From: Giardia intestinalis
Taxonomy: Eukaryota
Assembly: GCA_000002435.2 (NCBI GenBank)
Contig: CM018792.1
Direction: 5' to 3' (one strand)
DNA length: 64,000 nucleotides
Under the pieces are notes generated by a model. It had not been told where the DNA came from and did no database searches. It saw only the letters and a list, made by a program, of their open reading frames with translations. The translations under genes were made by a program, and so were the position numbers. This document shows, one piece after another, positions 41,066-43,112 of the stretch (within the stretch, counting starts at the first letter, position 1; the number at the start of each line of letters is the position of its first letter).

Positions 41066-41170
41066 ACAGCCTCTCTACTGATACCCCTGTTCGTGGTGAG
41101 CGCGCTTGCAGTAACCTACCAGACCGGCAAGTGCGAGACGGTCGGTAGCACAGAGATCTGCACCCAGTGC
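41066..41170 (+). other. VSP signal-peptide remnant in a different frame from the VSP body (no ATG)
   Basis: In the frame of track ORF 40550-41503 this segment reads ...TTASLLIPLFVVSALA|VTYQTGKCETVGSTEICTQC. This is a typical VSP hydrophobic leader with an ...ALA cleavage site and first Cys pairs. There is no in-frame ATG within ~230 nt upstream. The frame then drifts into Cys-free sequence. Confidence 0.5.
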
Positions 41171-43098
41171 AGGGCCGGGGCGTCCCGGTCGACGGCTTCT
41201 GCCGGCCCCCCGGCTCCATCCAGGCCGCGGCAGCCGGGTGCACCAAAGCGGGTGGGGCTGCCCTCGACAAGACGGCAGCCACCTGCGGGAAGTGCGGCGA
41301 CGGGTACTTCCTCTTCATGGGCGGGTGCTACAACAAGGATGCACACCCTGGCAGTGACATATGCACACAGGCTGAGGGAGGACTGTGCACTGAGTGTAAT
41401 ACAAAGAACGGCCTGTTCAAGAACCCGGCTGCAGCACCGAAGCCTGGTAATGAGTGCATTCTGTGCTGGGACACGGTGGGAGATGGCGCGACAAAGGGAG
41501 TAGAGAACTGCGCCACATGTACAGCACCGGGGAATGCAGGAGTAGCTACATGTGATACCTGTCAAGATGGATACTACAAGGACTCTCTGGTATGTATGCA
41601 GTGTGATCAGTCTTGTCTGACCTGCGATGGAAGTGGTCCGAATCAGTGCACCTCTTGTAAGGAGGGGAAGTACCTGAAAGGGACTGAGTGTGTAGACAAA
41701 GGTACGTGTAAGACTGACTACTACCCCGATGACACTAGCATGACCTGCGTTGCCTGTAGCACCATACAAGATTGCACAGCATGCACAATGGACCAGTCCA
41801 CGGGGAAGCCAAAGTGCACTAACTGCGGTAGTCAGAAGATCCCCAGGACGACCCTCGACGGGACCTCGACCTGTGTGGAAAATTCTTATGCTGGGTGTCA
41901 AGGCACAGACAAGGAGCTGTTCATGAAGGAGGACCAACCGGAGTGCCTGCTGTGTGGAGATGCTACAACGGGAACAGATCCGAAAGATAAAGGCGTCGCT
42001 AATTGTAGGACATGCACTAAAGCCAGCGCTACTGGAGCCGCACCGGTCTGTGAGACATGCAAGGAAGGATACATTAAGAATGGAAATGGTGCGGGCGCCA
42101 CGTGTGAGGCTTGTCATCAGAACTGTGCCACATGTTCTGAAGCTACGACAGAAAATAAGTGCCTGACCTGCAAAGAGGGGTTCTTCCTGGCCGGCACCGG
42201 CGAAGGAAAGTGCATCTCGTGCGAGAATGGTAATGATAGTGGCTACAGCGGGCTTGCAGGATGCCTCTCTTGCACAGCCCCAGCCGCCCCGGGCCCGGCC
42301 AGCTGCAACCGCTGCAAGATCGGCTACACGCTACAGGGAACAACGTGTGTGAAGACCTGCGAGGATGAGACTGCCTGTGGGGGGACCTCTGGGGCCTGTG
42401 ATGCCATAGTGATCGGTGCCAATGGAAAGGAGCTTCACTACTGTTCCTATTGTGGAGAGGCTAATAAGTATCCTATCAACGGTGTCTGTGTTAGTACTGG
42501 TAATGAAAATGGGAATACTTGTGCTAAAGGTGTATGTACACAGTGCACTACGGGATACTTTATGTACATGGGAGGCTGTTATAAGGTGACAGAGGTGCCG
42601 GGTAAGTCCATGTGCACAAAGGCAGGCGATGGTGTCTGCACAGAGGCGGCAGCCGGGTACTTCATCCCTCCCTCGCCCACCAAGGACAAGCAGTCCGTGT
42701 TGGCATGTAGTAACCCCCTTGGTGTCGAGCTGGCTGGTCAGAAGGCATACGTGGGGGTGGATGGCTGTTCACAGTGTACAGCCCCAACAGCTCCATCTGA
42801 TGCTGGCATGACCCCCGCTGTGTGTACCTCCTGTGACAGTGATAGGAAGCCCAACAAGGATGGCAGTGGGTGTGTGCTGTGCTCTGTGAGTGACTGCAAG
42901 AGCTGTGTGGTGGATGATGTGTGTGGGGAGTGTGTTGATGGATACAGTCTAGACAATGGTAAGTGTGTGTCTATGAGCACCAACAGGAGCGGGCTCAGCA
43001 CTGGTGCCATAGCAGGGATCTCCGTGGCTGTGGTCGTCGTCGTGGGGGGCCTCGTGGGCTTCCTCTGCTGGTGGTTCCTGTGTAGGGGGAAGGCGTGA
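41167..43098 (+). pseudogene. VSP: variant-specific surface protein (VSP): intact Cys-rich body, TM and CRGKA tail, but 5' end frame-disrupted and ATG-less
   Basis: The track 'M' at 41167 is GTG. The frame is open back to a TAG at 41146-41148. The body has ~29 CXXC motifs (TCGKCGDGY, GGCY x2, CTQCTTGY, CNRCKIGY...). The C-terminal TM helix is IAGISVAVVVVVGGLVGFLCWWFL, followed by the invariant CRGKA*. The region is GC-rich, like VSP genes. The signal peptide is in another frame (see 41066-41170). Confidence 0.6.
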
Positions 43099-43112
43099 CT
43101 CAGGTAGTGAAC
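43098..43112 (+). promoter_or_regulatory. VSP-type extended polyadenylation motif ACTCAGGTAGTGAAC
   Basis: It matches the conserved VSP 3' motif ACTYAGRTAGTRAAY exactly and starts at the last base of the TGA stop. Confidence 0.7.

Follow-up and report, generated by a model that had tools for sequence, protein, structure and literature searches.

A variant-specific surface protein pseudogene of Giardia lamblia WB with an ATG-less, out-of-frame leader

Pseudogenes are a recognized part of the family of variant-specific surface proteins (VSPs) of Giardia lamblia WB. In the GL2.1 assembly, the label pseudo-VSP is applied to VSPs without a proper signal peptide, and there are 208 in total (Xu et al. 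2020, PMC7000408). Open reading frames (ORFs) that lack a signal peptide and have one in another frame are also a class already on record. The element considered here, GL50803_0015123, is a VSP pseudogene of WB at 41066-43112 of a 64,000-nucleotide stretch of contig CM018792.1 (assembly GCA_000002435.2), the whole of which we call the window. GL50803_0015123 is listed on NC_051859.1 as a 'pVSP' with no protein accession and with signal peptide 'N'. Its entry gives a 593-amino-acid ORF with a transmembrane (TM) segment, CRGKA and an extended polyadenylation signal, and the leader remnant 5' of it falls in a 509-nt Cys-rich-like intergenic region, intergenic3038 (Rodriguez-Walker et al. 2022, bioRxiv 10.1101/2022.03.07.483299). 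We conclude that GL50803_0015123 and this upstream leader remnant are, with high probability, a non-coding pseudo-VSP of WB. The locus and its class are already known and are ordinary for the VSP family.

Body frame and 5' lesions of GL50803_0015123

The original prediction, made from the window alone, was of a VSP with an intact body and a conserved 3' end, behind a leader that is out of frame and has no ATG. The body frame is indeed open only back to a TAG, and it holds 649 codons, or the predicted 643 when counted from the GTG at 41167. It matches Pfam PF03302 VSP (E = 3.9e-53), its TM segment resembles the TM segments of database matches, CRGKA at 43081-43095 is followed by TGA, and the 3' motif is an exact fit to the extended polyadenylation signal ACTYAGRTAGTRAAY. 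The CXXC, GGCY, TM and CRGKA elements and the exact 3' motif named in the prediction are therefore all there. What an expressible VSP requires of its body and 3' end is present (a CRGKA tail, a single TM segment, a Cys-rich CXXC ectodomain matching PF03302 and an extended polyadenylation signal), and what is missing is at the 5' end, namely the start context PyAATGTT and a signal peptide that shares its frame with a Met and the ectodomain. The closest database match, XP_001707790.1 (VSP, G. lamblia ATCC 50803; 593 aa, 100% identity), is a 2007 model that begins at the internal ATG 41317 and covers 41317-43098. The body and its 3' end comprise:

41146-41148, + strand: TAG that closes the body frame upstream (six-frame reading)
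41149-43098, + strand: VSP body frame, open from that TAG to TGA 43096-43098, stop codon included
43006-43095, + strand: TM segment AIAGISVAVVVVVGGLVGFLCWWFL and CRGKA cytoplasmic tail (translation; preprint table)
43098-43112, + strand: extended VSP polyadenylation signal ACTCAGGTAGTGAAC (sequence; listed in the preprint's table of polyadenylation signals)

Transcripts of GL50803_0015123 are reported at about 1-65 transcripts per million (tables of bioRxiv 10.1101/2022.03.07.483299), a low level of transcription like that of most VSP loci. In the table of polyadenylation signals, the pVSP GL50803_0033783 and GL50803_0015123 have an identical 20-nt poly(A)-signal region, and the region of GL50803_00116477 is common to the pVSPs 0050013, 0050032, 0050033 and 0050035. 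These groups may reflect recently copied 3' ends.

The 5' end was compared with the functional WB paralogs GL50803_00112113 and GL50803_00114674 (DNA from the supplement of bioRxiv 10.1101/2022.03.07.483299), with the homologous locus of P15 (assemblage E; L015) and with A2 loci L001, L002, L012, L013 and L014. Exact matches to the proteins P0001, P0011, P0016 and P0018 and to the 643-aa ORF read from the GTG were also sought, and there were none. The leader and the motif KCETVGSTEICTQC, which carries the first Cys pairs, lie at 41072-41170 in a frame that is offset from the body frame by one base downstream, as predicted, and the + strand has no ATG from 40830 to 41317, which bears out the claim that none precedes the leader for more than 200 nt. 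The alignment is collinear and places four lesions around the leader:

41069-41071, + strand: lesion (i), GCC at the lost Met codon (collinear with functional WB VSPs and P15 L015)
41072-41110, + strand: signal-peptide remnant SLLIPLFVVSALA (translation; alignments to L012, L015 and WB paralogs)
about 41107/41108, + strand: lesion (ii), 30-nt (10-codon) in-frame deletion relative to full-length paralogs (alignments to L012, L015 and WB paralogs)
41117-41119, + strand: lesion (iii), TAC (Tyr) for the TGC (conserved Cys) of all homologs, seen only in WB
41177-41180, + strand: lesion (iv), GGGG, one G short, a -1 frameshift between leader and body (homolog alignment)

Lesion (i) destroys the initiator PyAATGTT, which stands at the Met of 135 of the 136 complete WB VSPs. 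The window reads CAGCCTC at this point, where the two functional WB paralogs read taATG TTC CAA CTG ATA CCC CTG TTC with no indel and the P15 locus has ACACCGCA directly followed by ATG TTG TTG ATA. The occurrences of YAATGTT nearest to the pseudogene are at 39272 and 44754, with none between them in the window. Aligning other VSP 5' ends, as the original prediction had proposed, thus identified the missing Met codon as GCC. A decay series from ATG through ATT and TTT to TCT at 41072-41074 was considered and dropped, since the WB paralogs have codon 2 (Phe) there.

The remaining lesions affect the segment between the lost Met and the body. Lesion (ii) removes the codons MAACQ.DGNH.., just after the signal peptide, and lesion (iii) replaces the first retained Cys of all homologs; these two changes refine the earlier description. 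An indel had been predicted around 41165-41200, and the same alignment maps it to the G run at 41177-41180. This run is GGGGG in five homologous loci, GGAGG in the functional WB paralogs and GGGG in the window. Adding one G produces a clean 676-codon frame with 28 CXXC, 2 GGCY, 11.5% Cys, the TM segment and CRGKA.

GL50803_0015123 therefore combines VSP-like sequence and a VSP 3' end with the lack of a proper start codon or signal peptide, and relative to functional homologs it carries disabling changes (ATG to GCC, the 30-nt deletion, Cys to Tyr and the -1 frameshift). Of the readings offered originally, that of a VSP pseudogene decayed at its 5' end is the one favored by these four independent lesions, by the loss of the initiator and Met and by the pseudo-VSP annotation.

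Breaks near the site of lesion (iv) are found in other VSP copies. More than 20 'partial' VSP models from other Giardia duodenalis assemblies (e.g., P0009, P0043, P0049, P0056, P0060 and P0073) start at VNDPAGVSIDSLCRP, the point equivalent to the frameshift site of the window (..AGGVPVDGFCRP), and many VSP copies may be truncated or recombined at this position. In P0033, a 717-aa 'partial' VSP of another isolate, the first ~57 residues resemble out-of-frame translations of the window segment 41120-41230, and there are two frame changes ahead of PQAAAAGC. Disruption of the frame at G and C runs seems to be recurrent within the 5' module.

The ATG-less cassette and recombination at the locus

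The lesioned leader is part of a larger unit that is shared among loci. GC content is 65-74% across about 40850-41330, compared to 47% for the window, and the pseudogene lies between two genes that serve as synteny anchors:

39752-40807, - strand: protein kinase gene (351 aa), synteny anchor, outside the pseudogene (ORF, domain search)
40833-41068, + strand: GC-rich 5' flank (65-72% GC), forming one repeated cassette with the ATG-less leader (composition, cross-locus identity)
43311-45743, + strand: ankyrin-repeat gene (810 aa), second synteny anchor (ORF, domain search)

The cassette consists of ~230 nt of GC-rich flank, GCC at the position of Met and the signal-peptide remnant with its 10-codon deletion (CACAGCCTYTCTACTGATACCCC is an example of its sequence). 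The kinase protein is 100% identical in L001-L011, and through this invariant neighbor we retrieved the syntenic locus from GCA_000498715.1 (prefix AHGT01), which we take to be isolate DH, and from three ENA assemblies. Lesions (i) and (ii) and the GC-rich flank are common to the syntenic locus in these four other assemblage-A assemblies, all of which have TGC and GGGGG and a leader in frame with the body; gene models there can start only at a GTG.

The cassette also occurs at unlinked loci. The flank, GCC and shortened leader are present at L013 and L014 (DH), and the WB pVSP GL50803_0050032 (chr5) bears the cassette with 92.5% identity over 398 nt, again with TGC and GGGGG. The flank itself (40833-41068) is about 92-95% identical to the flanks of these three pseudo-VSPs. 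The proximal part is found at L012 and in a third WB stretch (NC_051860.1:977206-977813), the latter with the same junction. A 35-nt segment of the flank (~40863-40897, containing CTGCTAGTC...) is present at the syntenic locus in WB and A2 and missing in the copies at L013, L014 and GL50803_0050032. Among the compared loci, lesions (iii) and (iv) were seen only in WB. As judged from these alignments, the loss of the start codon is apparently old and has spread among loci.

Further copies of the cassette were sought within the 64-kb window, the ATG-less junction was sought in a metagenome scan, and the GC-rich flank was searched against Rfam; there were no additional copies, 0 matches and no match, respectively. 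All three frames are open across the flank, which is no sign of coding, and we rejected the flank as coding sequence: the Met of the one extended model, P0023 (L013), results from a private substitution. The leader frame itself belongs to a 317-codon ORF (40550-41503, + strand) that crosses the 5' end of the kinase in antisense and continues into the pVSP. It appears to be a consequence of GC-rich sequence with few stop codons, not a true gene.

Other VSPs near cassette-bearing loci were noted in passing. Positions 7049-8142 of L012 correspond to window positions 1-1094. The contig that holds the A2 isolate's syntenic pVSP also has, ~45 kb away, another VSP without an ATG (P0020), whose counterpart in WB is expected some 4 kb ahead of window position 1. 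At L014:3001-8112 (DH, GCA_000498715.1), three VSP ORFs stand in tandem; the one with the cassette comes first, and only 37 nt separate it from the second.

The body of the pseudogene has a history different from that of its surroundings. Identity between WB and A2 is ~99% in the flanking genes, 93-94% in the 5' flank, 82% in the leader region (41100-41200) and 90-97% in the next 200 nt; it falls to 45-75% in the body (about 41400-43030) and is 92-100% again past ~43030. Divergence of the body despite nearly identical flanking genes indicates recombination at the locus, the body having been exchanged between the WB and A2 lineages. The synonymous divergence (dS) is 0.02-0.03 in the flanking genes and about 0.13 in the shared VSP 5' segment (nonsynonymous divergence, dN, about 0.09), and the latter value is too high for simple vertical descent. 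The body is also a mosaic: the top-matching VSP switches every 50-150 residues, and several stretches match at 48-50 of 50 residues. For window positions 41668-42190 (residues ~200-375 of the repaired protein), the top matches are the P15 (assemblage E) VSPs P0003 and P0004, and no assemblage-A VSP is on top among the matches listed.

Bodies and heads appear to move separately. The body of the WB pVSP GL50803_0050032 is identical at 294 of 295 positions to that of the functional VSP GL50803_00116477, and it has the dead cassette where GL50803_00116477 has an MFQ leader. We infer that VSP bodies and 5' heads recombine independently, which would account for the long open frames in ATG-less copies.

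We propose that the defective 5' cassette is older than the A1/A2 split at this locus and that duplication or gene conversion has carried it to further loci. The WB lineage later gained the Cys-to-Tyr change and lost one G from the G5 run, putting the leader out of frame. With no AUG in the VSP initiator context and no in-frame signal peptide, no surface VSP should be made. The body, TM segment, CRGKA and poly(A) signal have probably been kept intact through replacement or refreshing by recombination with other VSPs, and purifying selection on the protein probably need not be invoked. A more speculative extension, which we regard as improbable, is that the GC-rich ATG-less cassette acts as a transferable 'off' head, with recombination near KCETVG/CTQC moving bodies between initiator-ATG heads and non-expressible ones. 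If this were true, pseudo-VSPs would be more than decaying relics: through active exchange they would form an archive with an influence on the antigen repertoire.

Alternative explanations for the ATG-less leader and the frameshift

The frameshift could be a homopolymer assembly error in an intact, expressible VSP, as the original prediction allowed. The break is inside a G run of a segment with 74% GC, all five non-WB copies have one more G, and PacBio homopolymer frameshifts were present in the draft assembly (Xu et al. 2020, PMC7000408). However, in GL2.1 the homopolymer indels of PacBio sequence were corrected with 100x Illumina reads (Xu 2020, PMC7000408), and GGGG persists there. The G runs compared are those of assembled sequences (the window, GL2.1 and the homologous loci). 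The 399 nt of GL2.1 intergenic3038 displayed in the supplement are 100% identical to window positions 40808-41206, GGGG included, and the full length of intergenic3038 is 509 nt in both; this was the look at another assembly that had been suggested at the outset. Because GGGG is also in the Illumina-corrected assembly, an assembly error is unlikely. In addition, the 2007 model XP_001707790.1 already began at an internal ATG, and a Cys-to-Tyr change is found nearby in WB. The prediction had held that a single-base correction joining the leader to the body, together with an upstream ATG, would make this simply an intact VSP. One added G does restore a continuous frame, but a fifth G still leaves no start codon: every cassette copy has GCC in place of the Met codon, and copies with five Gs have neither an initiator nor an ATG, except for the private ATG of L013. 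We consider that the frameshift, seen only in WB, is almost certainly real, and that an intact gene obscured by an assembly error is very unlikely.

Initiation without the lost ATG could in principle rescue the leader. Copies of the ATG-less cassette might be functional VSPs that start at a non-AUG codon (e.g., CTG 41078-41080) or at the in-frame ATG 40700, with the WB copy inactivated recently by its frameshift. The leader frame is open up to 40550 and holds this ATG, and at four A2 loci that have GCC the frame is open all the way from the leader to CRGKA. The openness is unspecific, given the three open frames across the flank, and the open frames of the A2 copies are explained by recent exchange with functional VSPs of the kind seen in the 294/295 match. 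ATG 40700 lies within the kinase gene, in antisense to it, and a start there would add 123 residues before the signal peptide; the single copy with an upstream ATG (model P0023) owes it to a C-to-T change. The initiator, essentially universal in complete VSPs, is absent here, and a literature search gave no non-AUG initiation on Giardia cellular mRNAs. We give such initiation very little credence. An AUG could also be supplied by an upstream or trans-spliced exon if the conserved ACACCACAG just 5' of the leader were a spliceosomal 3' splice site, which is the least probable of these alternatives. Both CCACACCACAG in the window and CTACACCACAG at L012 are similar to CTRACACACAG, the 3' consensus of Giardia introns; L012 retains the motif even though its more distal upstream sequence is unrelated, and GTATGT is present at 40724-40729. 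The fit is to 8-9 of the 11 consensus positions and does not include the branch-site positions. The P15 homolog has its motif directly before ATG, indicating an ancestral 5' flank, and the final G of the motif belongs to the GCC codon. Removal of 40724-41069 (346 nt) from the only candidate donor would join ATG 40700 to CCT CTC TAC TGA, an immediate stop, and no donor is common to the sequences upstream of L012, L013 and L014. We therefore rejected an intron or trans-splicing acceptor at this site.

Some observations weigh against reading GL50803_0015123 as a non-coding pseudo-VSP with a real frameshift. The TM segment (43036-43050) reads VAVVVVV in the window and XP_001707790.1 and VAVVAVV in the GL2.1 table, a difference that may be due to assembly version or allele. 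This one residue is the only hint that GGGG was reached in two separate assemblies, the window and GL2.1. A search through both neighboring genes gave no independent short-read contig of WB type that spans the G run (L008 ends near 40956 and L016 begins at the ankyrin gene). In addition, the frames of the four A2 loci with the ATG-less cassette are fully open over 650-750 codons, which is unexpected for old, undisturbed pseudogenes. We attribute this to recombination, and selection for some function is possible.

A silent archive or donor copy, the latter also among the original readings, would be compatible with the pseudogene reading and would add to it: the copy might be maintained so that its body segments are exchanged with expressible VSPs. 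The exchange of bodies between A1 and A2 where the flanking sequence is 99% identical, the mosaic similarity along the body, and the functional VSP and cassette-bearing pVSP that have nearly identical bodies behind different 5' heads would all fit such a role, and the same role has been proposed for the pVSP arrays of G. muris. Exchange alone is no proof of selection for a reservoir or of this copy acting as a donor, and the body swap and mosaic give no direction of transfer. Furthermore, Giardia is described as switching antigens by epigenetic or post-transcriptional means, without reliance on gene conversion. We consider maintenance as a reservoir rather unlikely.

Comparison with described VSP copies

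Taken alone, GL50803_0015123 is a minor case, one among ~208 annotated WB pseudo-VSPs. We add a lesion-by-lesion map and show that the dead cassette recurs across loci and isolates, that the frameshift was seen in WB alone and that the body at this locus was exchanged between lineages. These additions could be of use for curating VSP repertoires and for studies of how recombination reshapes them.

The locus resembles the MFQLIPLF leader group among the functional VSPs of WB (GL50803_00112113, 00114674, 00116477 and 00137620) in its leader core (LIPLF..SAL), its N-terminal module (KCETVG..CTQC.AGGVPVDGFC) and its architecture of GGCY, CXXC, TM segment, CRGKA and polyadenylation signal. In those VSPs, taATGTT (initiator and Met), the codons MAACQPDGNH.. 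(10 in all) and every Cys are retained; the window copy instead shows GCC, lacks the 10 codons, and has Tyr for one Cys and a frameshift. Among WB pseudo-VSPs (PMC7000408; bioRxiv 10.1101/2022.03.07.483299), GL50803_0015123 is one member with no difference in kind; those two reports neither detail its lesions nor set out that the GC-rich 5' cassette recurs among loci and isolates or that the frameshift was seen in WB alone. Similarly, a 2010 study (PMC2996952) described VSP sequences internal to contigs, in which the 3' end is conserved and a usable start codon is lacking, and read them as pseudogenes. Its three sequences are short (224-902 nt after an upstream stop), in contrast to the full-length body and still recognizable lost leader of GL50803_0015123. 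Lastly, the pVSP arrays of Giardia muris, proposed to be gene-conversion reservoirs, likewise consist of VSP copies that lack signal peptides and have segments in common with expressible genes, but GL50803_0015123 is solitary and non-telomeric, situated between a kinase gene and an ankyrin gene.

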